DNA of 63,117 nucleotides from Thermodesulfobacteriota bacterium (GCA_024762675.1 JANTGZ010000002.1:1-63117), one strand, 5' to 3'; positions 6,939 to 42,048 are shown, numbered from the stretch's first letter. A program made the numbers and translations. Notes: generated by a model from the sequence alone, not told the origin.

Positions 6939-6939
6939 A

Positions 6940-10894: not shown

Positions 10895-10904
10895 ATGGTC
10901 AACT

Positions 10905-13095: not shown

Positions 13096-13135
13096 AATTA
13101 ATCAGGATAATAAAATTTTTTAACAGGGAAGTGAT

Positions 13136-14515
13136 TTGGTGAAAGGTATGCACCATAAGGTTGAGCGGGTTCATTTTGTCGGCATTGGCGGCAGCGGCAT
13201 GTGCGGTATCGCTGAGGTGTTGCTTAATCTGGGTTATCAGGTGCATGGTTCAGATTTGGCGAAGAGTCCGGTAACCGAACGGCTGGAAGGTATGGGTGCT
13301 CGTATATTCTATGGCCATGATCGGAAAAATGTTGGCGATGTTCAAGTGCTGGTTCGTTCGACAGCAGTGAAAGAAGATAATCCTGAAATCGTTGAGGCCC
13401 ATGCCCGGGCTATCCCGGTTATCCCCCGGGCCGAGATGCTGGCCGAACTGATGCGTCTGAAATATGGTATCGCAGTTGGTGGTACCCACGGCAAAACCAC
13501 TACGACGTCGATGATTGCAACTATGCTCAGTGGTACAGATCTTGACCCGACCGTGGTTATCGGAGGCCGACTCAACAGTATTAACAGTAATGCCTGTCTC
13601 GGAGAGGGAGAGATTCTGGTCGCGGAAGCCGACGAAAGTGATGGCTCATTTCTCGCGTTATCGCCGATTATTGCGATAATAACCAATATCGATCGTGAAC
13701 ATCTCGACTATTATCAGGGTGGCTTAAGTGAAATAGAGGATAACTTTGTCGCCTTTGCCAACAAAGTTCCATTTTACGGGTTGGTTGTCCTTTGTCTTGA
13801 TGATGCCCGGGTTCAGGAGATAATTCCTCGCATCGGGCGTCGGGTTTCGACCTACGGTTTTAACCCTCAGGCTGATGTAAGGGCTATTGAGGTAAAGATC
13901 AAAGGTATGCAGAGTTGTTTTAAGGTACTGGTTAAGGGACGGGAGTTGGGAGAATTTGTTATCGACATGCCGGGCCGCCATTATGTTCTCAACTGCCTGG
14001 CAGCGATTGCAACCGGTTTTGAACTGGGCCTCGAATTTTCCGACATTCGGGAACACCTCTCAGGTTTTGCCGGAGTTCAGCGACGTTTGCAGATTCTTGG
14101 GGAGTTTAAGGGAGCCCTTCTGGTTGATGATTATGGTCACCATCCAACCGAGATTCAGGTGACCCTTGAAGCTCTTCGCCAAGCTTGGCCTGAGAGACGT
14201 CTGGTGGCTCTTTTTCAACCCCATAGATATACGCGTACGCAGCATCTTTTTAATGATTTCCTGGTCGCTTTTAACGAGGCCGATATTCTCGTGGTAACAG
14301 CAATTTATGCCGCCGGAGAGACCCCCATTGATGGCATCAGCGGCGAATTATTAGCTGAAGCAATTCGTCAGCATGGCCATAAGCAGGTCTATTATTGTGC
14401 TGACCGCAAAGCTTTAAAAGCACTTGTTTTAGATCAAGTGCAACCAGCCGATCTTATCTTGACATTGGGTGCCGGAGATATCTGTCGTCTGGGGCAAGAG
14501 CTGGCTGAAGTGTAA
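13136..14515 (+). CDS. murC: UDP-MurNAc--L-Ala ligase MurC
   Basis: VHFVGIGGSGMCGIAEVL, GGTHGKTTTTSM and DDYGHHPTE. The start is ambiguous between TTG 13136, GTG 13139 and ATG 13148. Confidence 0.9.
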   Translation: MVKGMHHKVERVHFVGIGGSGMCGIAEVLLNLGYQVHGSDLAKSPVTERLEGMGARIFYGHDRKNVGDVQVLVRSTAVKEDNPEIVEAHARAIPVIPRAEMLAELMRLKYGIAVGGTHGKTTTTSMIATMLSGTDLDPTVVIGGRLNSINSNACLGEGEILVAEADESDGSFLALSPIIAIITNIDREHLDYYQGGLSEIEDNFVAFANKVPFYGLVVLCLDDARVQEIIPRIGRRVSTYGFNPQADVRAIEVKIKGMQSCFKVLVKGRELGEFVIDMPGRHYVLNCLAAIATGFELGLEFSDIREHLSGFAGVQRRLQILGEFKGALLVDDYGHHPTEIQVTLEALRQAWPERRLVALFQPHRYTRTQHLFNDFLVAFNEADILVVTAIYAAGETPIDGISGELLAEAIRQHGHKQVYYCADRKALKALVLDQVQPADLILTLGAGDICRLGQELAEV

Positions 14516-14554
14516 ACGTAGCCTGCTTTAGGGTTTAAAGAGGTTTGTTTTGAG

Positions 14555-14869
14555 ATGCCGAGATTAATTGTTATGAGATTGAGCTTAACTTTCCTGCTCT
14601 TAACATTTTTTCTAATTTCCTGCACGACTCCCGGCGGTCGTCAGGCCGGCGTTGTCTATGATGATACGGTGATTGCGACAAAGGTCAAAGGGCGTTTGAC
14701 CGAGATGATGGGCGCTAAAGTTATCGGTGTCGATGTAGATGTCTATCAGGGAGAGGTTACCCTGCAGGGGCGGGTTCGCAGTCCCAATATGGAGAGTCGG
14801 GTAGTAGCTGTAGTCGCTAGAACTCCCGGAGTTAGGAAAGTTATTAATCTCTTAAAAATTATACCATAG
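14555..14869 (+). CDS. BON-domain lipoprotein (OsmY-like)
   Basis: 104 aa. Signal peptide with lipobox LISC. Single BON-like domain (DDTVIATKVKGRL...VDVDVYQGEVTLQGRVRS...VARTPGVRKVINLL). Confidence 0.7.
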   Translation: MPRLIVMRLSLTFLLLTFFLISCTTPGGRQAGVVYDDTVIATKVKGRLTEMMGAKVIGVDVDVYQGEVTLQGRVRSPNMESRVVAVVARTPGVRKVINLLKIIP

Positions 14870-14876
14870 GCTGCTC

Positions 14877-15791
14877 TTGATTAGCGAAGAACAGAAAGAT
14901 GAGTTGCGTCGGCATTTGGCAGGGTTCCTGATTGAGGAAGAGCCTCTGGCGTTGAAAACTGCTTTCAAGATTGGTGGCGCCGCAGCTTTTTATCTGCAAC
15001 CTGAAACTTTAGAGGATCTCGAACTGACCCTGCGAACTTTAGCAGAGTTGGAGCTGCAATTTGTGATTCTTGGCGGTGGTTGTAATATTCTGGTTGCCGA
15101 CGCAGGGATTCGAGACCAGGTGGTGATCGACCTTGGCAAAGGTTTCAGGCATCTTGAGGTTGTTGGCTCTGACTTCTGGTCGGCAATGCTCAGGGTCGAA
15201 TGCGGAGTTCATATCTCCCAGTTGATTAAACTGAGTGAAGTTGAAGGGTATGGTGGGCTCGAAAAGCTGGCTGGCATTCCGGGAACTGTCGGCGGGGCTC
15301 TGGCTATGAACGCCGGGGCTTATGATGCTACGATCTATGACTGTCTCGGAGCCCTTCAGATTATGGAAAAAGATGGGCTTGTTTGGCGGAGCGCGTCGCA
15401 CTTTAAGCCGAGTTATCGCGATGGTGGTTTGGCGCCGGGGCAGGTACTGATCGCAGCCTATTTTCTGCTTGAACGCAGAGCTCATGTTGAGATTACAACG
15501 GAAATTGCCAGGATTAAGGATTTGCGACGGCAGCGCCTGCCGCGCGGAGCTCATGCCGGTTCGGTATTTAAAAATCCGGCTGGAGATTTTGCCGGTCGTC
15601 TTCTAGAAGAGTCCGGTTGCAAGGGGATGCGTTGCGGGGGCGCATATGTTTCTGAAGAGCATGCCAACGTTATCGTCGCGGACAAGGGTTCACGAGCTGA
15701 TGAGGTTATGGCCCTGATGGAGAGTATGCAGGCCCGGGTATGCGATCGTCATGGGGTCAATCTCGAACCGGAGATCAAGATATACTCTTGA
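14877..15791 (+). CDS. murB: UDP-N-acetylenolpyruvoylglucosamine reductase MurB
   Basis: 304 aa. FAD-binding FKIGGAAAFY..ILGGGCNILV, IPGTVGGALAMNAGAY, and GSVFKNP near the C-terminus. TTG start. Confidence 0.85.
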   Translation: MISEEQKDELRRHLAGFLIEEEPLALKTAFKIGGAAAFYLQPETLEDLELTLRTLAELELQFVILGGGCNILVADAGIRDQVVIDLGKGFRHLEVVGSDFWSAMLRVECGVHISQLIKLSEVEGYGGLEKLAGIPGTVGGALAMNAGAYDATIYDCLGALQIMEKDGLVWRSASHFKPSYRDGGLAPGQVLIAAYFLLERRAHVEITTEIARIKDLRRQRLPRGAHAGSVFKNPAGDFAGRLLEESGCKGMRCGGAYVSEEHANVIVADKGSRADEVMALMESMQARVCDRHGVNLEPEIKIYS

Positions 15792-15803
15792 CCAAGAGAG
15801 GTA

Positions 15804-16736
15804 GTGATGAAATTTGCGCGGAATACAAGGATTGGGGTACTCTATGGCGGACTCTCTGCCGAGCGCGAGGTTTCACTTAAAAGTGGTAAGGCGGTAGGTT
15901 TGGCCCTGCAGGAGCTGGGCTACCTGGTGACCCTGATTGATGTTGACCGCCAGGTTGTTGAACGACTTAAAGAGTCTCGGGTTGAAGCGGTTTTTATCGC
16001 ACTGCATGGGGCTTATGGAGAGGATGGCTCGATTCAGGGGGTTTTGGAATATCTTAAGATTCCCTATACCGGTCCCGGGGTAATGGGTAGCAGTATCGCC
16101 ATGAATAAGGTTATGAGCAAAAGGGTTCTGCTCTCACACAATATTCCGACCCCCGATTATACTGTGCCAGATGTGGATGAAGCTGAGATCGCGGTGCCGC
16201 CGGGCGGTTATCCTCTGGTAGTAAAGCCGGTGGGCGAGGGTTCAAGTCTTGGCTTAAGTATTGTTGCTGATGCTGAACAGTTGCCTGAAGCCTTGGTTAA
16301 GGCTCGTGAATATAGTCGACAGGTGATGATTGAGAGCTATATTCCTGGGCTTGAATTGACTGCAGCGATTTTAGGTGGCGAAGCTCTGCCGTTGATTGAA
16401 ATTAGAGCCCGGGGCGGAGTATACGATTATCAGGCTAAATATACCAAAGGCTACACTGAGTATCTGGTACCGGCCCCGGTAGCTCCGGATATCACCCGAA
16501 GGGTAAAGGATCTGGCTAAATCAAGCGCCCGGGCTTTGGGGTGTACGCGGGGAGCGGTGCGGGTCGATTTTCGTCTTGATATGAAGAACCGGCCCTATGT
16601 GATTGAAGTCAATACGGTGCCGGGGATGACGGAAACCAGCCTCCTGCCGCAGGCTGCAGAGGCTGCGGGGATTGACTTTATAACGTTAATAGATCGCATT
16701 CTTCAAGGTGCCGGTCTTGATCTTGCCCCGTTCTGA
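15804..16736 (+). CDS. ddl: D-alanine--D-alanine ligase
   Basis: 310 aa. VLYGGLSAEREVSL, ALHGAYGEDGSIQG, ATP-grasp VVKPVGEGSSLG, and EVNTVPGMTETSLLP. Confidence 0.9.
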   Translation: MMKFARNTRIGVLYGGLSAEREVSLKSGKAVGLALQELGYLVTLIDVDRQVVERLKESRVEAVFIALHGAYGEDGSIQGVLEYLKIPYTGPGVMGSSIAMNKVMSKRVLLSHNIPTPDYTVPDVDEAEIAVPPGGYPLVVKPVGEGSSLGLSIVADAEQLPEALVKAREYSRQVMIESYIPGLELTAAILGGEALPLIEIRARGGVYDYQAKYTKGYTEYLVPAPVAPDITRRVKDLAKSSARALGCTRGAVRVDFRLDMKNRPYVIEVNTVPGMTETSLLPQAAEAAGIDFITLIDRILQGAGLDLAPF

Positions 16737-17628
16737 TAAGAGTAAGCGGCGTGTACGGATTAGCAATAGTCGTAAAGATGTCCGGCGTGCCCGTCGTCCG
16801 AATTCCAAGAGTGTTAACCGTAAACTCTTGTTGTTTTTGGCGTTTGCTTGTCTTTGCGGGCTTGGTAGTGGAGCTTTGTGGCTCTGGTGGCCGACACTCG
16901 TAACCAGTGTCGATGGATGGTTCAAAGGGCGGGACGGATTTCTGGTCAAAGAGGTTATCGTACAGGGTAACTTTCGCAGCTCCCGTCAGGATATAATTAA
17001 GGCCCTGGGCCTGGCCCCACGGCAATTGATCTTTACCTTTGATCTCAAGCAAGTCCAGAATCGGGTGAATGCCCTGCCTTTTGTCAGGGAGACCCAGATT
17101 CATCGGCGCTGGCCTGACCGTCTTGAAATTATGGTAACAGAACGCCGCCCCAAAGCTCTTTTCTATCTTGACGAACTTTACCTGGTCGATCGGGATGGGG
17201 GGTTGATTGCTCCGGCACCCAAAAATGAGATGCTCGATTTTCCACTCATCAGCGGAGCTTCGGTGACCCAGTGGCAAAATCAACCGGAGGTCTGGATTAG
17301 GTTGTTGAAAAAAGCTCTTACTCTACTCTCTATATGGGAGAAAAGGGGCCGGGATTGGCCCGAAAAAGTTGCCCAGGTTGGGCTTGATGAGGTTTGCGGG
17401 GTAACTGTTTTTACCACCGATAAGGCCTGGGAGTTGCAATTGGGATTAGAGGGTTTTGACGAGCGTCTTAAGCGTTGGCGGCAGGTCTTAGAGGTGCTCG
17501 GGGAGAGAGCGATGGCAGTAAGTTATTTTGATTGTGCCGGGACCGATACGGTAGTGGCCGGCCTTAGGCCGCATCCCAAGGGTACTTTTTCTGAGAAGCT
17601 CAGAGCGCAAACAGATGGCGTCGATTAG
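16708..17628 (+). CDS. ftsQ: Cell division protein FtsQ
   Basis: Basic N-terminus, one TM helix, then POTRA-like VKEVIVQGNFRSSRQDI. Position between ddl and ftsA fits FtsQ. The start (GTG 16708, overlapping ddl) is uncertain. Confidence 0.75.
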   Translation: MPVLILPRSDKSKRRVRISNSRKDVRRARRPNSKSVNRKLLLFLAFACLCGLGSGALWLWWPTLVTSVDGWFKGRDGFLVKEVIVQGNFRSSRQDIIKALGLAPRQLIFTFDLKQVQNRVNALPFVRETQIHRRWPDRLEIMVTERRPKALFYLDELYLVDRDGGLIAPAPKNEMLDFPLISGASVTQWQNQPEVWIRLLKKALTLLSIWEKRGRDWPEKVAQVGLDEVCGVTVFTTDKAWELQLGLEGFDERLKRWRQVLEVLGERAMAVSYFDCAGTDTVVAGLRPHPKGTFSEKLRAQTDGVD

Positions 17629-17641
17629 AAGGCGGAGAAAC

Positions 17642-18871
17642 ATGGCCAAAAATGAACAGATGGTTGTCGGTATTGATCTGGGAACGACGAAAACCTGTGT
17701 CTTAGTGGGTTTGATGGGTGAGGACGGGCTTGAAGTTGCAGGTTTTGGCACTGCCCCTTCGAGCGGCTTGCGTAAAGGGGTGGTTATCAACCTTGACAGT
17801 ACGGTGGAGTCGATCCGTCAGGCTGTCGAAGAGGCGGAAAAGATGTGCGGCCAGAGAATCAAGGTCGTTCAGACAGGCATAGCCGGTAGTCATCTTCAAG
17901 GTCTTAACAGCCACGGGATTATCGGAGTTAAGGACCGTGAAGTAAGCGTTCGCGATGTCGAACAGGTGTTGGATGCGGCTCGGGCCGTGGCAATTCCGCT
18001 TGATCGTGAGGTTATCGATACCATTCCTCAGCAGTTCTTTCTCGATGATCAGGAGGGTGTGGTTGATCCGGTTGGTATGTCCGGGGTGCGTCTTGAGGTT
18101 GATGTTCATATTGTCACAGCGGCAGCGGCCTCTTTGCAGAATATCTATCGCTGCTGTAACCGGGCCGGACTTGACGTTAGAGGGGTGGTTTTACAGCAAC
18201 TAGCTTCAAGCCGGGCGGTTTTGACTGCTGAAGAGCGTGAATTAGGGGTTGTTCTGGTCGATGTCGGTGGAGGAACCACTGATATTGCAATCTTTATTAA
18301 TGGTACTATCTGCTACACGGCTTCTCTCCCTCTTGGAGGGAATCAGGTGACCAGTGATATCGCAATCGGCTTGCGAACGCCGATGGAGGCAGCCGAAAAG
18401 ATTAAACGTAATTATGGCTGTACGACGACACGAGTTATTGATCAGGATGAAGCGATAGAGGTGCCGAGTGTTGGCGGACGGCCACCCAGGAAGTTGTCGC
18501 GCCAGATCTTGGGTGAAATTATCGAACCGCGCTTGGAAGAGATTTTTGAGCTGGCAAATCGTGAGCTGCATAAATCGGGCGTTTATGACCAGGTTGTTTC
18601 CGGGGTGGTTGTCACCGGAGGTACCGCATTGTTGTCGGGAACCGCAGAACTGGCGGAAAAAGTTTTTGAACTGCAGGCTCGTGTCGGTTTTCCCGAAGGC
18701 AAAGGGAGTGGTTTTGAAGCTGTTAAAAACCCGATGTACGCGACCGCTGTTGGCCTGCTCCAATACGCCGCCGAGAAACATCCAGCAGGGCGTAGCAACA
18801 GTAATCTCAGTCGTTTGGAGATGGGCAGTTTTTTTAATAAAGTTATGACCTGGTTGAAGGACTTTTTCTAG
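17642..18871 (+). CDS. ftsA: Cell division protein FtsA
   Basis: Actin fold (VVGIDLGTTKTCVLVG, VDVGGGTTDIAIF, VVTGGTALLSG). ATG at 17642 is preferred to the 17615 start. Confidence 0.9.
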   Translation: MAKNEQMVVGIDLGTTKTCVLVGLMGEDGLEVAGFGTAPSSGLRKGVVINLDSTVESIRQAVEEAEKMCGQRIKVVQTGIAGSHLQGLNSHGIIGVKDREVSVRDVEQVLDAARAVAIPLDREVIDTIPQQFFLDDQEGVVDPVGMSGVRLEVDVHIVTAAAASLQNIYRCCNRAGLDVRGVVLQQLASSRAVLTAEERELGVVLVDVGGGTTDIAIFINGTICYTASLPLGGNQVTSDIAIGLRTPMEAAEKIKRNYGCTTTRVIDQDEAIEVPSVGGRPPRKLSRQILGEIIEPRLEEIFELANRELHKSGVYDQVVSGVVVTGGTALLSGTAELAEKVFELQARVGFPEGKGSGFEAVKNPMYATAVGLLQYAAEKHPAGRSNSNLSRLEMGSFFNKVMTWLKDFF

Positions 18872-18954
18872 GCGAACTACAAATATGTATTAAGTTTTCA
18901 GGTATTTATTTAGGGCGTGATGGCATCTTTAGGGGCAAGAAGGGGGAGAGAACG

Positions 18955-20220
18955 ATGACATTTGAATTTGAAGAGAGTGGAAGTCTGGCGGCTGATATCA
19001 AGGTGATCGGAGTTGGCGGCGGTGGTGGCAATGCGGTTGACAATATGATTATGTCGGGCTTGGAAGGGGTTGGTTTTATCGTTGCGAATACTGATGCACA
19101 AGATCTTAATGCATCGCAGGCACCGTTCCGGATACAGCTTGGCAGTCGTATGACCAAAGGTTTAGGAGCTGGTGCCAATCCTGATACCGGACGCAGTGCG
19201 GCTTTAGAGGATGCGGAACAAGTTTCTGAACTCATTGCCGGAGCCGATATGGTTTTTGTGACAGCCGGTATGGGTGGGGGCACGGGAACCGGAGGGGCGC
19301 CGGTGGTTGCCCAGTTGGCTCGAGAGGCCGGAGCGTTGGTGATTGGCGTGGCGACCAAGCCTTTTAGTTTTGAAGGTAAAAAGAAGATGCGGGTTGCCGA
19401 AGAGGGGCTGGAAAAATTGCGGGAAAATGTTGATGCACTGATAACAATTCCCAATCAACGTCTGCTCAATACGGTCTGCAAAGAGACGACGGCCGTTGAT
19501 GCCTTTAAGAAGGCTGATGATGTGCTGCTTCAGGCGGTGCGCAGTATCTCGGACCTGATTAATGTGCATGGTCAGATAAACCTCGATTTTCAGGATGTCA
19601 AAACGGTTATGGGTAACACCGGTATGGCTCTTATGGGAACCGGCATGGCGAGCGGTGAAAATCGTGCCTTGGAGGCGGCCCAGAAGGCGATCGCATCACC
19701 GTTATTGGAAGATTTGAGTATTCAGGGAGCCCGCGGGGTAATCATTAATATTGCAGCAGCAACCGAGGTGACTCTGCATGAGATCAGTGAAGCCGCCACC
19801 CTGATTCAAGAGGAGTCGGATGAAGATGCCGAGGTTATCTGGGGGGTCGTACTCGATGATTCATTGGGTGAAAATCTTCGAGTTACGGTGATTGCAACAG
19901 GTTTTGACTCGGGACAGCGAACCGTTTCGTCAGTAGCCAAGGGGCCGGGTCTCGGGTTGGCCGGCAAATATCCGATCGGTACCCGGCGTGATAACCTTGA
20001 TCGTCCCGCATTTCAGGCGCGTCAGGAAGAGACTGCATCTTTTGAGAATAAATATGAAGCGGTCGATTGTGACCGGACGGCAAACCATATGACACCTGTT
20101 GATGACATTCAGGATCTTCCGCAGATGATGAAGAAGGTCGTGGGCTCCTCTGAAGGTGAGTTTGCGGGCGGGGTGGATGATTATGATATTCCGGCATTTA
20201 TCCGCCGTCAGTTAGACTGA
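18955..20220 (+). CDS. ftsZ: Cell division GTPase FtsZ
   Basis: GVGGGGGNAV, tubulin signature GMGGGTGTGGAPV, NTDAQDL, and the C-terminal conserved peptide DIPAFIRRQ. Strong GGGGAG Shine-Dalgarno sequence. Confidence 0.97.
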   Translation: MTFEFEESGSLAADIKVIGVGGGGGNAVDNMIMSGLEGVGFIVANTDAQDLNASQAPFRIQLGSRMTKGLGAGANPDTGRSAALEDAEQVSELIAGADMVFVTAGMGGGTGTGGAPVVAQLAREAGALVIGVATKPFSFEGKKKMRVAEEGLEKLRENVDALITIPNQRLLNTVCKETTAVDAFKKADDVLLQAVRSISDLINVHGQINLDFQDVKTVMGNTGMALMGTGMASGENRALEAAQKAIASPLLEDLSIQGARGVIINIAAATEVTLHEISEAATLIQEESDEDAEVIWGVVLDDSLGENLRVTVIATGFDSGQRTVSSVAKGPGLGLAGKYPIGTRRDNLDRPAFQARQEETASFENKYEAVDCDRTANHMTPVDDIQDLPQMMKKVVGSSEGEFAGGVDDYDIPAFIRRQLD

Positions 20221-27421: not shown

Positions 27422-29080
27422 TCAGCTTGCACCATCCTGATTATGTTCTTGTATCAATTTCTTGAGACTTTCTTTCAGAGTATCGATTTCTTTACGCTGT
27501 TCTTCAAGCCTTCTCTGTTGTTCTTTCATCCCCTCCAGAAGAACCGGGATAAGCTGGATGTATTCAACCGATTTATAACCCTTGGCATCCGTGTTAACCA
27601 ACTCTGGCAGAACTTTTTCCACCTCCTGGGCGATAAATCCCAACTGGCGACCTTGAGCAAACCAACGATCAGGGAACTTATCCTTACGCCATTGAAAACT
27701 GACGCCCTCAAGTGCTTGAATTTTCTCTAGAGCATTTTCAATGGGATCTATCTCTTTTTTTAAACGGCGATCAGAAGGGCTGCTGATACTTGAAATTTCA
27801 AGCGTTCCATTAACCCGAAGTAAATCGTGGTCAAACTCTCCGTAGACAAGTGGCGTTAAAGTATTACTGTTATCAATATATAGCTTGTTTGAGCCTGTTT
27901 CATTCCCCCCAGCTAGATACCCAACAAAAACATTGCCAGCACCACTTGTATTGTTGTTCCCGGCAAACGCCCCTAAAAATGTGTTAAGTGATCCTGATGT
28001 GTTCTTGAGTCCGGCTTCGTGACCTAAGAAACAATTGTACATTGCGCCCGAAACTACTTTTCCAGCTCGGGAGCCAAGCAGTGTGTTGCCAAAATATGGA
28101 TGGTCCATCCCGGCTTCAAAACCCATGCAAACATTGTAAGATCCATCAGCAGAATCTCGGCCGGCATCGACACCGACATAGGTATTCCACTTTCCAGTAG
28201 TATTGTCATTGCCGGCCACCGCTCCGACGAAGGTATTACGATGTCCAGTAGTATTTTTTTCCCCGGCTTGTGCTCCAAGAAAAGTATTATAATCCCCGGT
28301 TATGTTATTTTGTCCTGATCCATCACCAATAAAAGTATTCAATTGTCCCGAAGTCGTTTTGTTCCCAGCACCATAACCAAAGAACGAATTGTAGAGTCCA
28401 CCAGAATTAACATCCAAAGAATCACCAGCATAAATGCCAAAAAAGGTATTATTAAAAGTCTCCCCTTCTATTGTTCCCCGGAGCAAGGGCGTGGTCTCAC
28501 TCTCCGTAGTCAAAACACCACTAACGTCAGTTTGTTGATTTTCAAAAAGATCATGCATTAAAGTAGTAAAAGTTAGTAGCCCAGAATCAGAAGTCATTTC
28601 ACCGGCATTGAAAGCCTTAATTTCGTCTGATAAAGCCTTGTCAAAAAGACCGATTGTCTGAGCTGGATCTATCTTGAAAAAAGCTCCTTGCGACCAAGGC
28701 CCGACACCCAGTTCATCATAGGCCTGCACGTACCAGACGTATGTATTACCGGACTTCAGGCCGGTATCAACTGAACCGGGTATCCAAGTCGTGGCGGGTG
28801 CAGGAATAAGCGCCTGTAAAACCGGTTCAGACTGAACCTGCATCTCATCGTAACTGATGAAATTCTCATCTTCCACCTGAAAAATCCTGATTTTATATCC
28901 CTGAGTATCACTATCTGCCGACCAGCTGAAAGTAGGTCGGCAACTTTCGCAGACAGCCACACCTTCGGACAAAACCGGTGAGACAGGTATTACTTCTGCA
29001 GAACTTGCTGAAATGGTTCCTGAAAAGCAAAATATCAACAATAAACAAAACATTTTGAAACTGTAGATTCGATATCTCAT
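27422..29080 (-). CDS. Secreted tail-fibre-domain protein with C-terminal S74 intramolecular-chaperone domain
   Basis: 552 aa with a signal peptide and an Fn3-like N-domain. Many NTF.G..AG..NT.G-type repeats. C-terminal SDRRLKKEIDPIENALEKIQALEGVSFQW...GFIAQEVEKVLPELV is typical of the endosialidase-chaperone (peptidase S74) domain, followed by a coiled coil. Confidence 0.75.
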   Translation of the reverse strand: MRYRIYSFKMFCLLLIFCFSGTISASSAEVIPVSPVLSEGVAVCESCRPTFSWSADSDTQGYKIRIFQVEDENFISYDEMQVQSEPVLQALIPAPATTWIPGSVDTGLKSGNTYVWYVQAYDELGVGPWSQGAFFKIDPAQTIGLFDKALSDEIKAFNAGEMTSDSGLLTFTTLMHDLFENQQTDVSGVLTTESETTPLLRGTIEGETFNNTFFGIYAGDSLDVNSGGLYNSFFGYGAGNKTTSGQLNTFIGDGSGQNNITGDYNTFLGAQAGEKNTTGHRNTFVGAVAGNDNTTGKWNTYVGVDAGRDSADGSYNVCMGFEAGMDHPYFGNTLLGSRAGKVVSGAMYNCFLGHEAGLKNTSGSLNTFLGAFAGNNNTSGAGNVFVGYLAGGNETGSNKLYIDNSNTLTPLVYGEFDHDLLRVNGTLEISSISSPSDRRLKKEIDPIENALEKIQALEGVSFQWRKDKFPDRWFAQGRQLGFIAQEVEKVLPELVNTDAKGYKSVEYIQLIPVLLEGMKEQQRRLEEQRKEIDTLKESLKKLIQEHNQDGAS

Positions 29081-29135
29081 ACATAACCCCCTTTTTATTG
29101 TGTTTACTTCCCAGATTCACCCTGTATCTACTAAC

Positions 29136-29163
29136 ATAATATCGCAAATATTCAGGCAGTCAA
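29136..29163 (-). promoter_or_regulatory. Candidate sigma70 promoter of the tail-fibre-like gene
   Basis: Minus strand: TTGACT (29163-29158), a 16-nt spacer, then TATTAT (29141-29136). It lies ~55 nt upstream of the ATG at 29080, which has a GGGGG Shine-Dalgarno sequence. Confidence 0.45.
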
Positions 29164-29182
29164 CAAGCTTTACTTACCGTTC

Positions 29183-29291
29183 ACAAAAAAAGACAACCAA
29201 GCTGCTCTTTAAAATAAGCAACTCGGCTGTCTTTGATGCTTTTAGAAACAAGACCCGTGGTTTTCCGACCCTGCCTTTCGACAAGTGTGGC
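29183..29291 (-). ncRNA. Structured RNA element B1 (GEMM-I-like features, ends in an intrinsic terminator)
   Basis: Minus strand: GCCACACTTGTCGAAAGGCAGGGTCGGAAAACCACGGGTCTTG...AAAGACAGCCGAGTTGC...GCAGCTTGGTTGTCTTTTTTTGTG. It has a GAAA-tetraloop hairpin (29270-29285) and a ~17-bp terminator stem (29188-29234) followed by a T7 run. It is a paralogue of B2, with compensatory changes in the tetraloop stem. Confidence 0.55.
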
Positions 29292-29356
29292 TTTTTCAGT
29301 TATTCATTTGATTCTACATACAATCATTAGGCATAAAGCAGTATAAAAAGCAATGC

Positions 29357-29509
29357 CTATTTTCTGATTTTAACTCAAAACACAACCTACCAAACAAGTG
29401 AGGTATGCGTCAAATATACCCAATGGCAATCTCTACTTTTCAGCCAGCCCGCAAAATAGAGATTGATCGTAAATCTTTTTTAATCACAAGCCTTATTTAA
29501 AAGCAATAA
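29357..29509. repeat. A-repeat unit A1 (~153 bp)
   Basis: Hairpin GGTAT(29402-06)/ATACC(29416-20). Core arms CAATCTCTA(29427-35)/TAGAGATTG(29457-65), with interleaved TGGC/GCCA. Confidence 0.7.
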
Positions 29510-29663
29510 CTATTTTGGGACTTATGCTTAAAAAATAATTCAGCAAATAGGTGCGGTACCTCTTATAAGGTATCCACTGGCAATCTCTACTTTTCTGCCA
29601 GCCTGTAATGTAGAGATTCATCGTAACCATTTCTTATCACATATCACAGATCGATGCAATGAT
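29510..29663. repeat. A-repeat unit A2 (~154 bp)
   Basis: Head-to-tail with A1. Hairpin GGTACCT/AGGTATC (29555-29574). CTGGCA(29577-82)/TGCCAG(29596-601) is interleaved with AATCTCTAC(29582-90)/GTAGAGATT(29610-18). Confidence 0.75.
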
Positions 29664-29785
29664 TATTTTGCGATTTATACTTGATAAATAATTTGGTAAA
29701 CAGGTGCGGTATTCCTCGAATATATCCACTGGCAATCACAACATTCTTGCCAAACAACAAGCTTAACATTCATCGTAATAGGATG
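29664..29785. repeat. A-repeat unit A3 (3' part degenerate)
   Basis: The 5' part aligns with A2 (TTATTTTGCGATTTATACTTGATAAATAATTTGGTAAACAGGTGCGGTA...). Its hairpin is TATTC/GAATA, covarying with A2. TGGCAA/TTGCCA is retained, but the second stem has decayed. Confidence 0.65.
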
Positions 29786-29810: not shown

Positions 29811-30110
29811 TTAATGCAAGCGACTATGCCACTTTTGGGGATCTTTTGCAGTATGAAAAACACTATAAATTGTTACTTTTTCATCTAGATGTTCGTAGAA
29901 TATAGCATAAGGAAATCGCCTCAACAATGCTCGGCGGTATTCTTCATGAACCTTCACGTAAATCTCTGGCGTACGAATTATTGCTTGAATACAAGCTTCC
30001 ATACAAGACAAAAACTCCTCCCCCAAACCAGGACGTCGTTCCTCATACCAGGAATATGCCTCATCAATATCCCGCTTTACCTCAGGAGCTATTATTAAAT
30101 CAACGGCCAT
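29811..30110 (-). CDS. Type II toxin, ParE/RelE family
   Basis: ~99 aa from ATG 30110: MAVDLIIAPEVKRDIDEAYSWYEE...RRFPYAIFYEHLDEKVTIYSVFH. It overlaps the upstream antitoxin gene by 11 nt. Confidence 0.8.
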   Translation of the reverse strand: MAVDLIIAPEVKRDIDEAYSWYEERRPGLGEEFLSCMEACIQAIIRTPEIYVKVHEEYRRALLRRFPYAIFYEHLDEKVTIYSVFHTAKDPQKWHSRLH

Positions 30111-30330
30111 AACGACTACGAACCTGACGCTTAACTTCATCCCATGAAAGATTCGACGCCGTGCTCTTCATCAAGTTGGATTTTCGTCTTGCCAGTTCTT
30201 TTTTTTGCCACTCATGCACTGGTACTGATGAAGGGTTAGCTGCCAAATCATCCCACAGATCTTCAACTAATTGAAGTTTTTCAGGCGGGCTCAAATCAAA
30301 AATTGATATAGTATTTAAATTCATTTTCAC
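30100..30330 (-). CDS. Type II antitoxin (putative addiction-module component, Unstab_antitox-like)
   Basis: 76 aa. LSPPEKLQLVEDLWDDLAANP...WQKKELARR...W.EVK pattern. Its position directly upstream of the ParE/RelE gene fits an antitoxin. Confidence 0.7.
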   Translation of the reverse strand: MKMNLNTISIFDLSPPEKLQLVEDLWDDLAANPSSVPVHEWQKKELARRKSNLMKSTASNLSWDEVKRQVRSRYGR

Positions 30331-30412: not shown

Positions 30413-30475
30413 TTGCTAATGGCAACCTCAACCTTTACGCCAAATTGCCAGTTTGAGATTGATCGTAAGAACCTT
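30413..30475. repeat. A-repeat core copy A4
   Basis: AATGGCAACCTCAACCTTTACGCCAAATTGCCAGTTTGAGATTGATCGTAAGA. TGGCAA/TTGCCA is interleaved with CCTCAA/TTGAGATT, and it shares the GATTGATCGTAA tail with A1. Confidence 0.6.
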
Positions 30476-30492
30476 ATTTCGAGTCACCGCTC

Positions 30493-30602
30493 ACAAAAAA
30501 AGACAGCTAAGCTGCTCTTTATTAAAGAGGCAACCCGGCTGTCTTTTAGGTTTTGGAGACAAGACCCGTGGCTTTCCGACCCCGTCTTTCGGCGGGAGTG
30601 GC
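30493..30602 (-). ncRNA. Structured RNA element B2 (paralogue of B1, ends in an intrinsic terminator)
   Basis: Minus strand: GCCACTCCCGCCGAAAGACGGGGTCGGAAAGCCACGGGTCTTGTCTCC...AAAAGACAGCCGGGTTGCCTCTTTAATAAAGAGCAGCTTAGCTGTCTTTTTTTGTG. Tetraloop hairpin at 30581-30596; terminator at 30498-30546 plus a T7 run. A possible promoter lies just upstream: TTGTGC, 17 nt, TAGATA. Confidence 0.55.
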
Positions 30603-30660
30603 GTTTACAATTATCTAAGATAGCCACTTTATAAGCACAAGCAACAACTCTTAGCAACAC

Positions 30661-30775
30661 CTATTTTGCGATTTATACCTTTCAGATAACTTATCAAATA
30701 GATGCGGCATCCCGGAGGTGTCCACAGGTAATCTCTTCTTTTTAACCAGACCCCAAAGTAGAGATTCATTCTTTA
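30661..30775. repeat. A-repeat unit A5
   Basis: CTATTTTGCGATTTATACC...AGATGCGGCATCCCGGAGGTGTCCACAGGTAATCTCTTC...GTAGAGATTCATTC aligns with A2 and A3. Its hairpin is CATC/GGTG, a third covarying version. Confidence 0.65.
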
Positions 30776-30854
30776 AATCACAACATCGACTTGAACGCAA
30801 TACCAATTTGGTTCCGGCTCTGCCGGATTATGGTATTAAAAAAGGTTTGATAAA

Positions 30855-35605: not shown

Positions 35606-38600
35606 CTATTTTAGAAAAGCTCCCCAGAGGTCATAAAGCAACTCGTTGCCGCCACCGGCCCCCTGTTCAACTGCAACATATTCACCCGCTTCATAGACTT
35701 TTATCAGAACGTAGCCGCCCTGATAACCAACTACTTCAGCTTCGCGATCAAACTTGTAGAAAGTATCATCCTCACCCATACTCCAGATCTCTGGTTCTGT
35801 TCCAGCAAATGGCAGCCGGAGAATTGAGCCGAGTTCGCATTCATGTGCGTACTCATACTGCAGAGGATGAGCGATTGCAAACCCTCGTCCTTCAAGATAA
35901 ACGCTTTCATCACTGCCAACCGTAAAGCCGCAGGCTTGAAGGTGGTTTTTAAGCTCGGCTGGGACATAAAAATACATTTTATCCATCCATGGGCCGTTAA
36001 CTACCTGTTTGATATATTCGGCATTTTGTTCCGAATGAGTCAACAGATTGGGGTCAATGTCTGGAATTTGATTGCCTATGACTGAACCTTCACCCGCCAT
36101 TTTAAAGAGCTCTTCAGCATGATGATGGCTTAATTTAAGAACCTCATCAGCCCTGGCACCCAGGAAACGCAACCCATTGGCTTCCATTGGTTTAAGATAG
36201 TCAATTTCACCATCGACGACAAACAAACCGTCGGGGTTTGCCATCTCCATCATGCCGCTATCATGGCTGTAGCGCATGAAGCGATTCTCTTCAGTAAACC
36301 ATGGTGGTGACCATGGCATAAACATAATATTTCGGTCGGTTACGCGGTGGGCTCCGGCCGAAGTTGCGGAATCACCATGACAATCATTACATGATTTTGA
36401 ACCTAAGGCCTTTTCCGCAGGCTTAATACCATGGCTGTCAGAGAAATAATGCGCAGCGATAAATAGTACCGGATGGGGATCACTCTCGCCTTCGGCCTTT
36501 AGTACGGTTGTTAAAGCAGCTTGTACAGCTCTGACATCCTCATCCCACCAGATATCGGGAAACATATCTCCGGTATGATCGAAGAGGACATAACCGCTAT
36601 CTTTCAAAACAACGCGTCCGATATTGGGGTTTTCGGCCCAGGTTGGATCGTTAGGTGGAATCATAGCCATTTCCATGGGTGAAACCACGCCCAATTGAAT
36701 TGGTCGTTTATATGTTTTTATAGCTGCATTGAGTTCCTTTACATAGAGAACCTTTGCCCCACCATATGGGAGATCCGACATGTCGGCGTCTGGTTGAGGG
36801 TTAACATCGACCCAGGTCATGACTGTAATCGGGTTCCCGATTACGACTTGGGGGTAGCCATTAATACCGCTGGCATAATATAAGGGTGGAAAGTTCAAGT
36901 TGGGTTGCTGCGGATCATAGTCGAGCGGCACACCCATTTGCTTGTAGCCTTCGTAGCTGACCTGGAGAAAATAGTTCCAGAAATCAAATTTAAAATTGGT
37001 CGGCATGCCATTGACTAAACGACCGGGATCAGCTTCACCGTCCATGTTGAAGTAATTGACCATCTGGGAGACAAAATCCATCGATTGGACTCCCTTACCA
37101 TCGGCGTCAATTTGCTGGCTGACCATGTTGAAATGAGGAATTCCGTAACCCGGGGAAGTACCGTAAACCGGTTGCAGTGCGTATGGAGGTCCAGGAAAGG
37201 CCATTCCCTTACCGTCACCGACAACCCCGGCGACCTGATCAGCAAGGACATTATAGCCCATCAGGTTGTCAAAATTGGTGTAGTATCCCAGCGTATCATC
37301 AAAGGTTCTAAAGCGCCAGGTTTTGCGATAAGGGGAATGGCAGGCTTGACAGGAGACTACGGCCAGGTGACGTCCGGTAGTTTCCCCAAAAGTCTCTTCA
37401 TGTTTAGCTATGGGGCTTGGTGCATTGGCATCTTCTCCAGCCAGGTGACAGCCTTCACAACTTTTGGGGCGGGGGTTGGCATCAAGATCATTACGAACCA
37501 TATGGGCCGTATCGACTCCTTTGAGAAAATTATGTTTATCTTCTTTGCTGCCGCTTGCGCGCAAATGGCAGGTACCGCAACCTATTTTCTGACTCGACAT
37601 ATGGACATCATAGCCCATTGCTTCAGGGTCGTCTGTAAAGTTAACGTAGTTGCCATTTTTTACCCAGTCCGCCGGCATGCCCAGCATATAGGTCCGGCCT
37701 CGGGTCCATTCACTGTTGCCATGATCCTTAGTCATGACATGGCACTGGCCGCAAACTTTGACCCATTTAGAACTGTTAATGTCGTTCTGGCCACCAAACA
37801 TTTCAGCAATGGGGATGGCACCATTACTGTCAAGGTCACTGGTGTTATAATAAGCTTTAGGTTGCCATTCATCACCGTCACGGTCAATCGTTATATATGT
37901 TGCAGGTGAGCCGTCATGGTCAAAATCAAGGCCCATGAGACCGGCTGTCGGCACCATATCAAAAAAGCTGGGTAAAAGATCGTGTAGCGTGGGGCTCACC
38001 TTGCCTTCTGGAATGGCACCTTCTTGAATATCTTTAATTACCAGGGAGAGATCAACCTGTCCGGTGTCGGGGTTGATATATGTAGTATCACCCTGCATGA
38101 ACAAGCCCATGGCGTATATGGAGCCACTGTATTCCTCACCGACCTTCCCAGTGTAGGGTATACCTTCCCCTTCAATTACACCGACTCGGATAAAATCACG
38201 CACAGAAGCATCACAGCTATCCCAGTTGCTATAGAACTTACCCGGCTCATAGGCTCGCAAACCGTAAGGCACCGGCAGAAACATATTACTGCCCGGCATA
38301 TTGAACTTAATCTGGTAAGCAAAAACAAAATCGTTGAACATAAAGCCCATCAGCATGTTCATGTCACCTTCTGACGGCATCAGGCCTTTGTCCTTGAAAT
38401 ATTGGAGAAAACCCGTAAAAAATTGTTCCAGAGCTGCTTGGGATGCCTGTAGACGACTCATCTCATCGGCAACACCATTGGGGTTGCCGCAATATTCCGC
38501 CCTCAACATACCCGTTGCCGGGTCCCAGATTTTAGGTACATTCTGGCCATACAGAGCGTAAGGCAGTGGAACGCCGCTGTCTTCAATCTGCTTAAGGCCA

Positions 38601-39634
38601 TCAACCCACATCTGCATCATTTCACCAACGATTTCCTTGGGTAGTTGGGCCATCGCCATAAATGGGGTTGGTCGACCCATGCGTTGGGGGCCATCGGTAT
38701 AATTCATGGCCGTGCTGTTTTCAAGGCCAACTTTGGTGGGCATGCCGAAAGAGATTTTTTCAATTTTCTGAGTCTGTGGGTTTCGATCAGCGAAAATCAT
38801 CATCCGTGGTCGAAAGGGTTGAACTTTAAGACCATCAGCAGCCTGGTAAGTATAACTGCTGTCGGGGTCGATATGGCAAAGTAGACAGTCGGCTTCCATG
38901 ACACCGGATTTACTCCAGTCATGGGGGCGGGGCTCGCCGATTAAGGCCATAGTTTCATCAATGGTCTCTGCACCATATAAGGCTTTGACGAGATCATTGG
39001 AGTCGTAGCCGTAGAAGTCACGGTCATAGGTGTGCAGAGGGGATAATGTTTCATCTGTGAAAGGAGTTACTGTGTTATCATCGTTGACAACTCCTTCAAC
39101 CGGGCCGCCGCCGGGATGGCAGGAGTAACATGTAGCCATATGGTCGGCGGTTCCGATATCAAAGAAATAGGGTTTTCCTTCAGATGTGAAAGAAGCATCC
39201 TTGCTGCCGCGAACCCCTTTTGCCGCCAACTGGCGGTAAGAGGGGGGTCACCATGCTCCAAACTGGCCCGGACTCAAAAGATGGCCATAGGCATGGGTAA
39301 GATATTTCTGCAGGTTATTATCTTTATTTTCACTGACCCAGGTATCGCTGGCGCCGCCATTAACTCCAGGGGTTGTCCCTTCGCGAAAATGATAGGCTTT
39401 AGTGATTGAGTTGTAATCATGACACTTGCCGCAGGTCTGTTTAGGACTGTAGGCGGGCCCCTGTTTGTAGATAGCACCGCTGGCAGCAGTCGTTGTATCG
39501 TTATCATTTAACTGGTCAATAATGCGGTTGCCTTGTGTGTCGTAAAGGACTACCGGGGGATGGGCTGCCGTCGCCAGTAAGGGGGTAAGGGCCAACAGTA
39601 AGGCTCCCAGGATAAGGGTTTTGACTTTTCTCAT
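35606..39634 (-). CDS. Very large secreted multihaem c-type cytochrome; one reading frame with a single in-frame UGA at 39250-39248
   Basis: ORF 39634-39248 has a signal peptide plus CGKCH. ORF 39229-35606 has 7 CXXCH motifs: CYSCH, CLLCH, CGQCH, CGTCH, CEGCH, CQACH and CNDCH. The two are in the same frame, separated only by TGA plus six sense codons (PPSYRQ). The downstream ORF has a TTG start, no Shine-Dalgarno sequence and no signal peptide. The alternative readings are two separate genes or a pseudogene. Confidence 0.55.
39214..39245 (-). promoter_or_regulatory. SECIS-like hairpin downstream of the in-frame UGA
   Basis: Minus strand: UGA CC CCCCUCUU A CCGCC AGUU GGCGG C AAAAGGGG. The upper stem CCGCC/GGCGG starts 11 nt after the UGA. 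The apical loop AGUU contains GU. The lower stem is CCCCUCUU/AAAAGGGG with one mismatch. Confidence 0.45.
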
Positions 39635-39698: not shown

Positions 39699-40598
39699 TT
39701 ATTTGCGTAAAATTATGCCTTTGTGGCATTGCATGCACTCTCCCGTTTCATGGCAGACGTTACAGCTGCGGAAATTACGTCGAGCGGCTTCTCCATGTCC
39801 ATTATCACGTTGATAGGAGATCCAATCACCACGGAAATGAGAGACCGGTTTCTGGTGTTTATGGCAATCGACGCAATAACCGGCTGAATGACAGGTGGCA
39901 CAGGTGCGGCGATCATGGGTCGCCTCAACCCCGTGACCGGTTGTTTTCCAGCCAAAGTTGTGATCCCTTGGCTTTTCAGTCTCGTGACATTTCTCGCAGA
40001 AAGCTTGGCGATTGGGATGGCAATAGCCACAAGAAGTTGAGAGGCGGCTGGCAAAGCCATGTTTTGTTTCCCAGTCCTGGTTATGGCTTTCAGGGGCTTG
40101 CTCGGCTCTGATTTCACTATGACAGGCTTCGCAATCGGTTGGTCCTTCCTGTTTTTTGTGACATTTTAGACAGAGTCCCATCTTCGGGCCGTTTTCCAGG
40201 CCGCGCTCCTTATTGAGCGATTGATGGCATGAGTAACAGGTAATATCACTGTGTACTTCATGATTGAAGATTAGGTCGGCAAAGCTCTTAGGTTTAACAC
40301 TTTTCTCAATCTCATAATCCTTGTCGGCGCTTTCCGGGGAATGGCAGAGAAGGCACTCATCAGAAGGTTCATCAAGGTTTATTTCGTGACATTCCTGGCA
40401 ATCTGCCATCGTGGCGGCGGCAAAATTCCCCTCAGCATCTTTTTGATGACATTGGTCGCAGGTAGCTTCCTGCTCCATTATATGGAAACGGTGACTGAAT
40501 TTAAGACCTACTGAAGTTTTACAGGCTCCGAGAACCAGAGCCCCAAGGGCGATTGCAGCAAGTCCGACCCAGAATAATTTTCTTTTTTGCTTACTCAT
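39699..40598 (-). CDS. Dodecahaem c-type cytochrome (periplasmic, possibly lipid-anchored)
   Basis: 12 CXXCH motifs in ~299 aa. N-terminus MSKQKRKLFWVGLAAIALGALVLGAC is a signal peptide with a possible lipobox. ATG 40598 is preferred to TTG 40667. Confidence 0.85.
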   Translation of the reverse strand: MSKQKRKLFWVGLAAIALGALVLGACKTSVGLKFSHRFHIMEQEATCDQCHQKDAEGNFAAATMADCQECHEINLDEPSDECLLCHSPESADKDYEIEKSVKPKSFADLIFNHEVHSDITCYSCHQSLNKERGLENGPKMGLCLKCHKKQEGPTDCEACHSEIRAEQAPESHNQDWETKHGFASRLSTSCGYCHPNRQAFCEKCHETEKPRDHNFGWKTTGHGVEATHDRRTCATCHSAGYCVDCHKHQKPVSHFRGDWISYQRDNGHGEAARRNFRSCNVCHETGECMQCHKGIILRK

Positions 40599-40650
40599 AG
40601 AAATAGCCTGTTTAGTAAGGTTGTTAGTAGCTTGAAGATCTCTTCCCGCA

Positions 40651-42048
40651 TTAGAAATTGAGGTCAAGGGTGATTGTTAGAGAGTTGATGTAGTCAACCC
40701 CGAGCTCATCTTCATAGAAATCATCTTGCGCGTATTCATAGGCGAATTCGATCCGTGAGTGGTCACAGAGTCGGTAGGCGACCGCTGCCCGATAGCTGGT
40801 TGAGGCTTCATCTTCGAGGAGGCTGTTGACATCTTCAGTTTTATGGTAGTAGCCGGCTTCAAGTTCCAATTTATGAAATAACTCCTGCTCCAGGTCAACA
40901 AACCAGGAGGTCGACTCAGCTTCGTAAAACTTATCCCGATCCTCCCACCATTGACTGATTCCGGCACTGCAACGAAATCCTTGCCAGCCGAAACATTGAT
41001 CGAGGTCAAAGCCCGCGGTAACCCTTTCAAAATCGGTGTTGTAGAGATTTTCGTCTTCACCATGAGCGAGACTGCGGTTAGTATAGCGACCGAATAGGGT
41101 AAGTCCCTTGATTATAGAGATTGGCTGGCTGATGCGAATGTCAAACTCAAGATAGCCTTGCTCCTGCATAAGATAGAGGCGGTTCATCTCAGAACTTAAG
41201 GCTTCATCCAGGGTATAACTGAAGTCAAAAAGGAAATCGGCATCCGAGGCGATGGCGTAACGGCGGTAGAATGAAAAGTCGAGAACCGTGCCGGTGGCAG
41301 CGATTGTGGTTTCGAGGCCGCTTTCGAAAAAACGGGTATGGTCATTGATAAAGGCGATGCGGCTGCGGAATTTCCAGAGGTCAGAAGGTTGCCAGTAGAT
41401 TGATGATTCCCATGAGGTCTCTTCAAAGATCACGGCATTTACATCAAGTGCCAGTCCCGGTAGGGGACGGACTCTTAAGTTGGCTCCGCCAACCCCGTCG
41501 GGTCCGAGGTCGCTGTAATGCTGGACCGCGAGGCCGCCAAAAACTTCGATTTCCATACCCATCCATTGAGGCCGGTCATAATGTGCCCAGATCCCGTCTA
41601 ACTGTACGGTTTCAGCCCCATAAGCATATTGGCGACCAGCTCTTATGGTAAGATCGTCAGTAAAAAGCCCAGTTTTTTCCAGGTAAGCGTAGTAGCATTC
41701 GAAATCCTGGCGATGACTACCACGGCTGTCGGTATAATCCTGGAAAATCGAGCCCTGACGAGTGCCGTCCAGATCTTTGGCATAGGTGGCCATCGAAAAG
41801 AAGGTCAGTCCTAAGCTTTGCCAGTTGGCATCAATCGCCAGGGTCTCAAAGATATCCTGATCCTGGTCCTCATCGACAGTCATAAAGCTTGCCGGACTGT
41901 CTGACCATTGCAGTCGATATTCTGTGGTACTTCTGATTGAGATATCGGCCCCGCCTAATTCCAGTGCAAATCCGGATGTTGTCAGCAGGCAACATCCCAA
42001 TATCAGCCCGGTCCCAAGCTTCAGTTTTCGCCATTGTAATCCAGCCAT
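40651..42048 (-). CDS. Outer-membrane beta-barrel (porin-like) protein of a porin-cytochrome cluster
   Basis: 465 aa. Signal peptide, many alternating Y/F/W-rich strands, and a C-terminal ...ITLDLNF. It is the first gene of the cytochrome operon. Confidence 0.65.
   Translation of the reverse strand: MAGLQWRKLKLGTGLILGCCLLTTSGFALELGGADISIRSTTEYRLQWSDSPASFMTVDEDQDQDIFETLAIDANWQSLGLTFFSMATYAKDLDGTRQGSIFQDYTDSRGSHRQDFECYYAYLEKTGLFTDDLTIRAGRQYAYGAETVQLDGIWAHYDRPQWMGMEIEVFGGLAVQHYSDLGPDGVGGANLRVRPLPGLALDVNAVIFEETSWESSIYWQPSDLWKFRSRIAFINDHTRFFESGLETTIAATGTVLDFSFYRRYAIASDADFLFDFSYTLDEALSSEMNRLYLMQEQGYLEFDIRISQPISIIKGLTLFGRYTNRSLAHGEDENLYNTDFERVTAGFDLDQCFGWQGFRCSAGISQWWEDRDKFYEAESTSWFVDLEQELFHKLELEAGYYHKTEDVNSLLEDEASTSYRAAVAYRLCDHSRIEFAYEYAQDDFYEDELGVDYINSLTITLDLNF

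Follow-up and report, generated by a model that had tools for sequence, protein, structure and literature searches.

The stretch of DNA analyzed here (63,117 nucleotides [nt] from a Thermodesulfobacteriota bacterium, GCA_024762675.1 JANTGZ010000002.1; referred to as the window) carries on its minus strand, upstream of a gene for a tail-fiber-like protein, a structured RNA element (B1), for which an earlier note made from the sequence had offered several readings: a GEMM-I-related riboswitch with a competing terminator, a new aptamer class whose ligand specificity may differ, or an independent small RNA. We asked to which family B1 and its paralogue B2 belong, which ligand they are likely to bind, and whether they would act on the genes behind them. 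B1 and B2 are genuine riboswitches of a known family, with the standard terminator-based ON layout and the typical kind of target gene; they are a new example and not a new aptamer class. From the sequence evidence, we consider it very likely that both are c-di-GMP-I (GEMM-I) riboswitches controlling transcription as an ON switch.

Family assignment of B1 and B2

When the window was searched with Rfam 15 at the gathering thresholds, exactly two matches were obtained, B1 and B2. The best model for both was RF03167, designated c-di-GMP-I-GGC (64.7 bits, against a gathering score of 59), and the aptamers lie on the minus strand at 29213..29300 for B1 (E = 5.3e-13, full model 1-80) and at 30525..30611 for B2 (E = 5.1e-13). 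The check with cmscan that the earlier note had proposed thus gave a significant match for both copies (E of approximately 5e-13). For each copy, one more family of clan CL00126 scored above its own gathering threshold and was suppressed in the clan competition. An indirect measure of how B1 and B2 fit RF01051, the c-di-GMP-I model, comes from near-identical relatives, which score 53.7 to 59.5 bits on it (gathering score, 35); a B2-like relative reaches 58 bits. Sister sequences are assigned to RF03167 if they score at least 59 bits on it and otherwise to RF01051 at 50 to 59 bits, so that only a few bits decide between the models. The RF03167 matches, together with the suppressed matches from the same clan, identify B1 and B2 as GEMM-I-clan aptamers and not as a new fold. 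That B1 is a GEMM-I-related aptamer with a competing terminator, as had been proposed, is therefore backed by covariance-model matches above the gathering scores.

The minus strand of 29185-29305 reads GAATAACTGAAAAAGCCACACTTGTCGAAAGGCAGGGTCGGAAAACCACGGGTCTTGTTTCTAAAAGCATCAAAGACAGCCGAGTTGCTTATTTTAAAGAGCAGCTTGGTTGTCTTTTTTT. Over the aptamer and terminator, B1 and B2 have the same nucleotide at 99 of 123 aligned positions (80.5%), in line with the 80% previously estimated by eye, and their likeness extends about 200 nt farther upstream. The 126-nt region of B1 folds at -42.1 kcal/mol (z = -4.0 versus shuffled sequences) and that of B2 at -39.9 kcal/mol (z = -3.0). By Rfam E values and folding z-scores, the element is well beyond chance.

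All of the sequence features that the earlier note had listed were recovered. The hairpin CTTGTC-GAAA-GGCAGG is present at 29285-29270 on the minus strand and forms, as CUUGUC-GAAA-GGCAGG, helix P1a of B1 with its GAAA tetraloop (29270..29285), as seen in both the sequence and the fold. The corresponding stem of B2 reads CCCGCC-GAAA-GACGGG with one C-A mismatch, exactly as described. The junction and P2 segments were found as GGTCGGAAAACCACGGGTCTTG...AAGACAGCCGAGTTGC, with GGTCGGAAAACCACGGG as the junction. Two readings had to be amended. The element that had been placed at 29183-29291 is real, but its 5' end at 29291 was too short: the aptamer reaches 29300, and the junction upstream of G20 had been cut off. 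Likewise, the junction reading TCGGAAAGCC is correct for B2, but B1 reads TCGGAAAACC. The structure lines of cmscan show a two-hairpin aptamer with a GNRA-capped P1a, a P2 (P1b) with a bulged A, and a two-pair closing helix at the junction. The same two-hairpin aptamer with a GNRA-capped P1a, and the same conserved P2 sequence, AGCCACGGGUC...GACAGCCGGGUUGCC, are found in c-di-GMP-I (GEMM-I, RF01051; Vibrio cholerae Vc2). The absence of an evident P1, which had been read as a departure from the family, is no such departure, since RF01051 itself models no P1 in its consensus structure line.

Relatives and covariation

The search for further copies, another step that the earlier note had proposed, was made in genome_contigs with the pattern GTCGGAAARCCACGGGTC and returned more than 116 loci, with approximately 90 genuine aptamers among the matches listed. 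Among these matches, the relatives with the flipped pair described below come mostly from Desulfobulbaceae, including the cable bacteria Electrothrix and Electronema; other carriers are Ca. Tharpella, MAGs (metagenome-assembled genomes) labeled "Deltaproteobacteria" and "Thermodesulfobacteriota," Methylophaga, Methylobacter, Gallionellaceae, and further groups. By a rough regular-expression count among the matches listed, position 20 is G in 83 of 88 scorable flipped-pair aptamers and position 92 is C in 85 of 90.

A tight group of 19 sequences, B1 and B2 included, has a common P2 loop and terminator (the B-type group). In the alignment of B1, B2, and the 17 other loci (A2), the covariation sought in homologues was found in P1a, where five of the six pairs change on both sides. 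The closing pairs are C-G in 19 of 19 sequences. P2 is 98% paired; its invariance stems from the search pattern, which had selected that sequence. In the terminator, 92% of cells are paired and variation lies almost wholly in the 3' arm as exchanges between G-U and G-C, the 5' arm being held fixed by the constraint of the aptamer. The distal loop of P2 is conserved in sequence across many MAGs.

A candidate 4-bp P1 (A2 columns 6-9 with 92-95) was rejected, with 49% of cells paired in the 19 relatives. Beside the GAAA loop in P1a, the C-A mismatch of B2 (30592/30585; A2 columns 25/32) falls at a pair that is unpaired in 8 of the 19 sequences, most of which, by eye, read C opposite A; this recurrent C-A may be a conserved noncanonical pair rather than a sign of decay.

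Ligand-binding pocket and choice of model

In the published c-di-GMP-I pocket, the two bases of the ligand are paired to G20 (G-alpha) and C92 (G-beta), with A47 positioned between them. Ligand pairing by G20 and C92 and a backbone contact by A47 have been described (PMC5888326, PMC6140456), and cGAMP riboswitches have A at position 20 (PMC6140456). The cmscan alignments place the equivalents on the minus strand at 29291 (G20), 29264 (A47), and 29218 (C92) in B1 and at 30602, 30575, and 30530, respectively, in B2: there is a G at model position 10 (G20), a GC at the 3' junction (C92), and an A after the closing pair. Both copies read G...CC/GG-AAA...GC and so have the same G20, A47, and C92 pocket as RF01051. 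Since these three positions are canonical, we file B1 and B2 as c-di-GMP-I RNAs and not as the GGC variant, and the predicted ligand of both is c-di-GMP; the earlier suggestion that ligand specificity may differ gains no support from the pocket.

A cGAMP-sensing riboswitch like GEMM-Ib of Geobacter would use the same scaffold (c-AMP-GMP riboswitch, Geobacter Gs1761). The Geobacter GEMM-Ib RNA is itself a transcriptional ON switch built on an intrinsic terminator; moreover, the lineage is deltaproteobacterium-like, and two genes for MtrC/MtrF-like multiheme cytochromes lie in the same window. This reading is nonetheless extremely unlikely, given that the A at position 20 of cGAMP riboswitches (A14 in Gs1761; PMC6140456) is absent from B1 and B2, both of which carry G20, as do the great majority of the scorable relatives counted above.

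The designation of the best-scoring model has to be set against the canonical pocket. RF03167 is reportedly an orphan variant from the work of Weinberg et al. in 2017, and we take GGC to mean G20/G47/C92, going by the model consensus. The consensus line of RF03167 (...GGCAAACC...GACGCGAAgCcAcGG...) and that of RF01051 (...GGCAAAcc...GACGCAAAgCcAcgG...) differ in the junction at a single unpaired position after the closing G-C, which is A in RF01051 and G in RF03167 and which corresponds to A47 in Vc2 numbering. Here (RF03167 model position 37), the RF03167 consensus has G (GCGAA), whereas B1 and B2 have A (GGAAA) and the match line is blank; in the RF01051 alignment, A47 of the B1/B2 type is a match (CG:AAA:CC; RF01051 consensus, GCAAA). 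The G47 that marks RF03167 versus RF01051 is thus absent from B1 and B2.

The two copies do differ from c-di-GMP-I (RF01051) next to the pocket. The pocket-adjacent pair G21-C46 is replaced by C-G in a compensated flip, A43 is replaced by U, and the internal loop reads ACA or ACU instead of AAA; the closing pair in the RF03167 consensus is likewise G-C, against C-G in B1 and B2. In B1, C29290-G29265 and C29289-G29266 (minus strand) are the pairs listed as flipped from a reading of the sequence. Both RF01051 and RF03167 mark the flipped pair with a colon, which in Infernal denotes a non-negative score. The claim of a new aptamer class had its counterpart in TCGG versus ACGC and GCC versus GGC; these amount to a compensated flip of one pair in an RNA that matches a known clan, and the claim is not supported.

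The other difference lies in distal P2, where B1 and B2 have a loop of 19 to 21 nt in place of the tetraloop-receptor stem. RF01051 models a stem there (<<<<____>>>> flanked by CUAA/AuG), which we take to be the 11-nt tetraloop receptor in P2. No such receptor was found in the distal P2 of these RNAs, the modeled stem carrying the "vv" marks of noncanonical pairs, although the GAAA loop is present. Docking of tetraloop and receptor belongs to the type 1 architecture only and is not required for membership in c-di-GMP-I. RF03167 has the same architecture with the distal receptor stem left unmodeled, and it probably outscores RF01051 because the stem that it omits is missing in these RNAs.

We therefore weighed whether B1 and B2 could be true members of the orphan c-di-GMP-I-GGC group or of a related subclass, sensing a ligand other than c-di-GMP. 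Such a reading would account for the top score of RF03167 above its gathering score, for the flipped pair, U43, and altered internal loop beside the pocket, and for a distal P2 loop that is conserved in many MAGs while the canonical tetraloop receptor is absent. We hold it to be very unlikely, as the copies have A at the very position that distinguishes RF03167 from RF01051, sister sequences fall to RF01051 once they drop below 59 bits on RF03167, and the win of RF03167 probably stems from the unmodeled receptor stem. Moreover, G47 on the same P2 sequence (GGGACGCGAARCCACGGGTC) gave two matches in 185,579 species genomes, which we regard as chance matches, both being in coding-like sequence and without an Rfam match. 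We accordingly retain the assignment to c-di-GMP-I.

Eleven aptamers (in L004, L007, L009, L011, L013, L018, L023, L025, L048, L089, and L117) were assigned to RF03167 at its gathering score; the pattern that retrieved them all prescribes A at A47, and the B-type members checked among them also have G20 and C92. The label GGC would fall on such canonical-pocket RNAs because RF03167 fits the receptor-less architecture. The RF03167 threshold is apparently low enough to let in ordinary c-di-GMP-I RNAs in which the distal receptor stem is missing, and automated annotation could in this way overstate the frequency of the GGC variant.

Terminators and predicted switching

The earlier note had described a terminator stem of about 17 bp followed by seven T residues. 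Terminator scans and minimum-free-energy (MFE) folds place the B1 intrinsic terminator at 29185..29234 on the minus strand, with a stem of 19 bp (29234-29189) and a T7 run (29191-29185); folds and alignment place that of B2 at 30495..30547, with a T7 run at 30501-30495. It has the features of a terminator expression platform, namely, a G+C-containing hairpin and a U-run that share a strand with the aptamer: the 5' arm of the B1 terminator (29234-29212) consists of the 3' strand of P2, the junction with C92, and the 3' side of P1. The aptamer and terminator are for this reason mutually exclusive. The competition that had been pointed out, in which AAGACAGCC pairs either with GGGTCTT (which is aptamer helix P2) or inside the terminator, was thus recovered.

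The terminator fold is the MFE fold of the full transcript (-41 to -42 kcal/mol), and the canonical aptamer folds have -15.5 kcal/mol (B1) and -19.4 kcal/mol (B2). A terminator far more stable than the aptamer is what is expected of a kinetically controlled ON switch. In the aptamer-only transcript of B2, the MFE fold contains the GEMM-I helices P1a and P2. The canonical fold of B1 lies 2.4 kcal/mol above the MFE fold of its aptamer-only transcript; B1 differs from c-di-GMP-I by one C-A mismatch in P2 (C29259 opposite A29223), which may weaken it.

In the mechanism that we propose, the nascent minus-strand RNA would first fold into the two-hairpin aptamer, with P1a bearing the GAAA loop and P2 formed by AAAACCACGGGUCUU...AAGACAGCCGAGUU. 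Binding of c-di-GMP at the junction (G20, A47, and C92) would keep the 3' strand of P2 locked in the aptamer, and the 19-bp terminator, deprived of its 5' arm, would be unable to form. RNA polymerase would then read through into the gene for the secreted tail-fiber-like Peptidase_S74 protein; when the ligand is absent, the terminator would form and transcription would end at the T7 run. For B1 and B2 alike, we infer which ligand is bound, which way the switch works in vivo, and where transcription begins. Most likely, high c-di-GMP turns on the secreted tail-fiber-like surface protein via B1.

Genes behind B1 and B2

The putative regulated gene of B1 (27422..29080, minus strand) encodes a protein of 552 amino acids (aa). 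By Pfam, PHROGs tail-fiber families, and its translation, this protein has a signal peptide, an Ig/fn3-like domain, NTxxG repeats, and a C-terminal Peptidase_S74 intramolecular chaperone, and its C-terminal half matches phage tail-fiber and tail-spike families in PHROGs. The gene product thus resembles a tail fiber but is putatively secreted. The neighbors of the gene encode rhodanese-domain proteins, a glycosyltransferase, and an Fe-S protein and are not phage genes. An exact-protein look-up gave a 2-kb Logan contig as the sole match. The orthologue in locus L004 is 76% identical and likewise lies behind a B-type riboswitch.

The genes behind 16 B-type riboswitches match families common among secreted or surface proteins (Lcl_C, Peptidase_S74, PEP-CTERM, IPTL-CTERM, LVIVD, beta-helix, Chlam_PMP, Big_5, and beta-propellers), and most of the N termini of these proteins are signal-peptide-like by eye. 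This is the same placement upstream of genes for surface or "environment" proteins as that of c-di-GMP-I (RF01051), and it fits the classic GEMM association and the role of c-di-GMP in promoting surface structures. B1 and B2 are thus supported by family homology, secondary structure, a mutually exclusive terminator, a canonical pocket, and an association with secreted or surface protein genes. A c-di-GMP riboswitch before a secreted S74 protein suggests c-di-GMP control of surface fibers or adhesins in an uncultured lineage, as elsewhere.

B2 has the same architecture and is followed by a degenerate copy of the upstream element U (described below) and then by an Unstab_antitox/ParE-type toxin-antitoxin pair (29811-30330, minus strand), which has the B2 terminator on one side and the U array of B1 on the other and carries a promoter-like site of its own. 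In relatives, a secreted-protein gene stands where the toxin-antitoxin pair is found here. L048, the nearest relative, has such genes behind its B2-like copy and its B1-like copy alike, and B2 may therefore have lost its original target by insertion; it may be orphaned or may now read through into the toxin-antitoxin operon.

Promoters

The leader between the B1 terminator and the start codon (29081..29184, minus strand; approximately 100 nt) contains a promoter-like match, TTGACT-16-TATTAT (29163-29136), which scores 10/12 and had given rise to the caveat that B1 might be independent of the gene. We considered the corresponding possibility that B1 is mainly an independent short RNA, ended by the riboswitch terminator and perhaps acting in trans, with the fiber-like gene expressed from its own promoter at 29163-29136. 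The match itself, the strength of the terminator, and the situation behind B2, where a toxin-antitoxin pair with its own promoter-like site takes the place of a surface-protein gene, would agree with this. The caveat proved weak: promoter-like sites number 2 in the 2.1-kb region, versus 5.2 ± 2.6 in shuffled sequence, and the orthologous leader in L004 has 24 nt inserted between the hexamers and TATGGG as the -10. In many relatives, an open reading frame (ORF) starts 16 to 60 nt after the T-run, too close for a promoter to fit in between, and the consistent link to secreted-protein genes argues for action in cis. An independent short RNA is accordingly unlikely in our view. The candidate promoter after the B1 terminator was rejected, with no enrichment over shuffles and neither spacing nor -10 conserved in L004; an independent promoter at 29163-29136 is possible but unsupported.

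Upstream of B1 and B2, no sigma70 promoter scoring at least 9/12 was found. In six relatives, there are sigma70-like sites of which the -10 hexamer ends 21 to 30 nt upstream of G20, and three of these score 10 to 12/12; at this distance, the aptamer would be at the 5' end of the transcript. By eye, a candidate -10 (TAGAAT) can be seen in B1 approximately 19 nt upstream of G20.

A repeated element upstream of the riboswitches

Directly 5' of B1 are three tandem copies, of approximately 153 nt each, of an element that we call U (29306..29785, minus strand), recognized from the direct-repeat families D1/D2, BLAST, conservation, and hairpin covariation. A single copy, also recognized from direct repeats, lies 5' of B2 (30617..30783, minus strand), and the degenerate copy after B2 is at 30413-30478. 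Among relatives, U copies were found in L007 (295-469), L048 (1345-1515 and 2394-2560), L063 (1545-1710), and L106 (2835-2998). The conserved blocks of U are TTACGAT, AAAGTtGAGATTGCCAGTGGATA, AAATCGCAAAATAGGTATTGC, and GGTTTGTGCTTAA. U usually precedes B-type riboswitches, and a strict U pattern occurs at only four loci in species genomes, all four of which adjoin riboswitches.

U had no Rfam match. Two U hairpins of our own choosing show covariation, one of them being 97% paired and rich in G-U pairs, of a kind that only minus-strand RNA can form. RNAalifold on nine U copies gave a weak consensus (-5.0 kcal/mol) with an unfavorable covariation term. U is probably a promoter and/or 5'-leader module, and as such it could be a promoter or activator or else a structured 5' leader; it is the least explained feature of the neighborhood.

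A further reading would take the B-type RNAs, with their C21-G46 flip, U43, receptor-less P2 loop, and terminator, as a distinct subclass in which specificity or affinity has shifted away from c-di-GMP or in which U serves as a second structured domain of a composite leader. The lineage in question would be poorly known and uncultured, related to Tharpella and CSMAG_305. We give this reading little credence and prefer c-di-GMP-I riboswitches of the ordinary kind.

Genomic context and side observations

FtsZ of the window shares 92% identity with that of the MAG CSMAG_305 and no more than 64% (best segment) with that of the other 79 of the 80 best pattern-matched loci, a gap that may be overstated because the scan finds only relatives that match the pattern. 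This suggests a sparsely sampled lineage, with a taxon that FtsZ places imprecisely. B-type riboswitches also occur in Ca. Tharpella, of the phylum Tharpellota.

After the T-run of most B-type elements, there is a semiconserved motif, GTG-N3-GG(T/C)AA, located in the window at 29184-29172 and 30494-30482.

Many copies of flipped-pair GEMM-I aptamers are present in cable-bacterium genomes (Ca. Electrothrix, Electronema, and Desulfobulbaceae S24.Bin023), with at least five loci on the E. laxa chromosome and at least eight contigs in S24.Bin023. These copies (including L002, L005, L008, L017, L022, L027, L035, L039, L042, and many others) have GYRA loops and lack the terminator; a Shine-Dalgarno sequence and a start codon come immediately after the aptamer, an arrangement suggestive of translational control in cable bacteria. 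In the literature covered, cable bacteria and riboswitches were mentioned together only in an unrelated review on metal recovery from phones. The flipped-pair copies in cable bacteria and the U element are to be taken as leads and not as findings.

The window also contains a dcw cell-wall and cell-division cluster on the plus strand (4935-20220), running from a penicillin-binding transpeptidase and Mur ligases to FtsA and FtsZ. The two multiheme cytochrome genes are on the minus strand (35606-39229 and 39699-40667); one product has MtrC/MtrF-like domains II/IV, and the other is of the c7/c3 type with a weaker match to an MtrC domain. One ORF of the window (among those of at least 200 aa) matches PF13487 (HD_5), a family that includes HD-GYP c-di-GMP phosphodiesterases.
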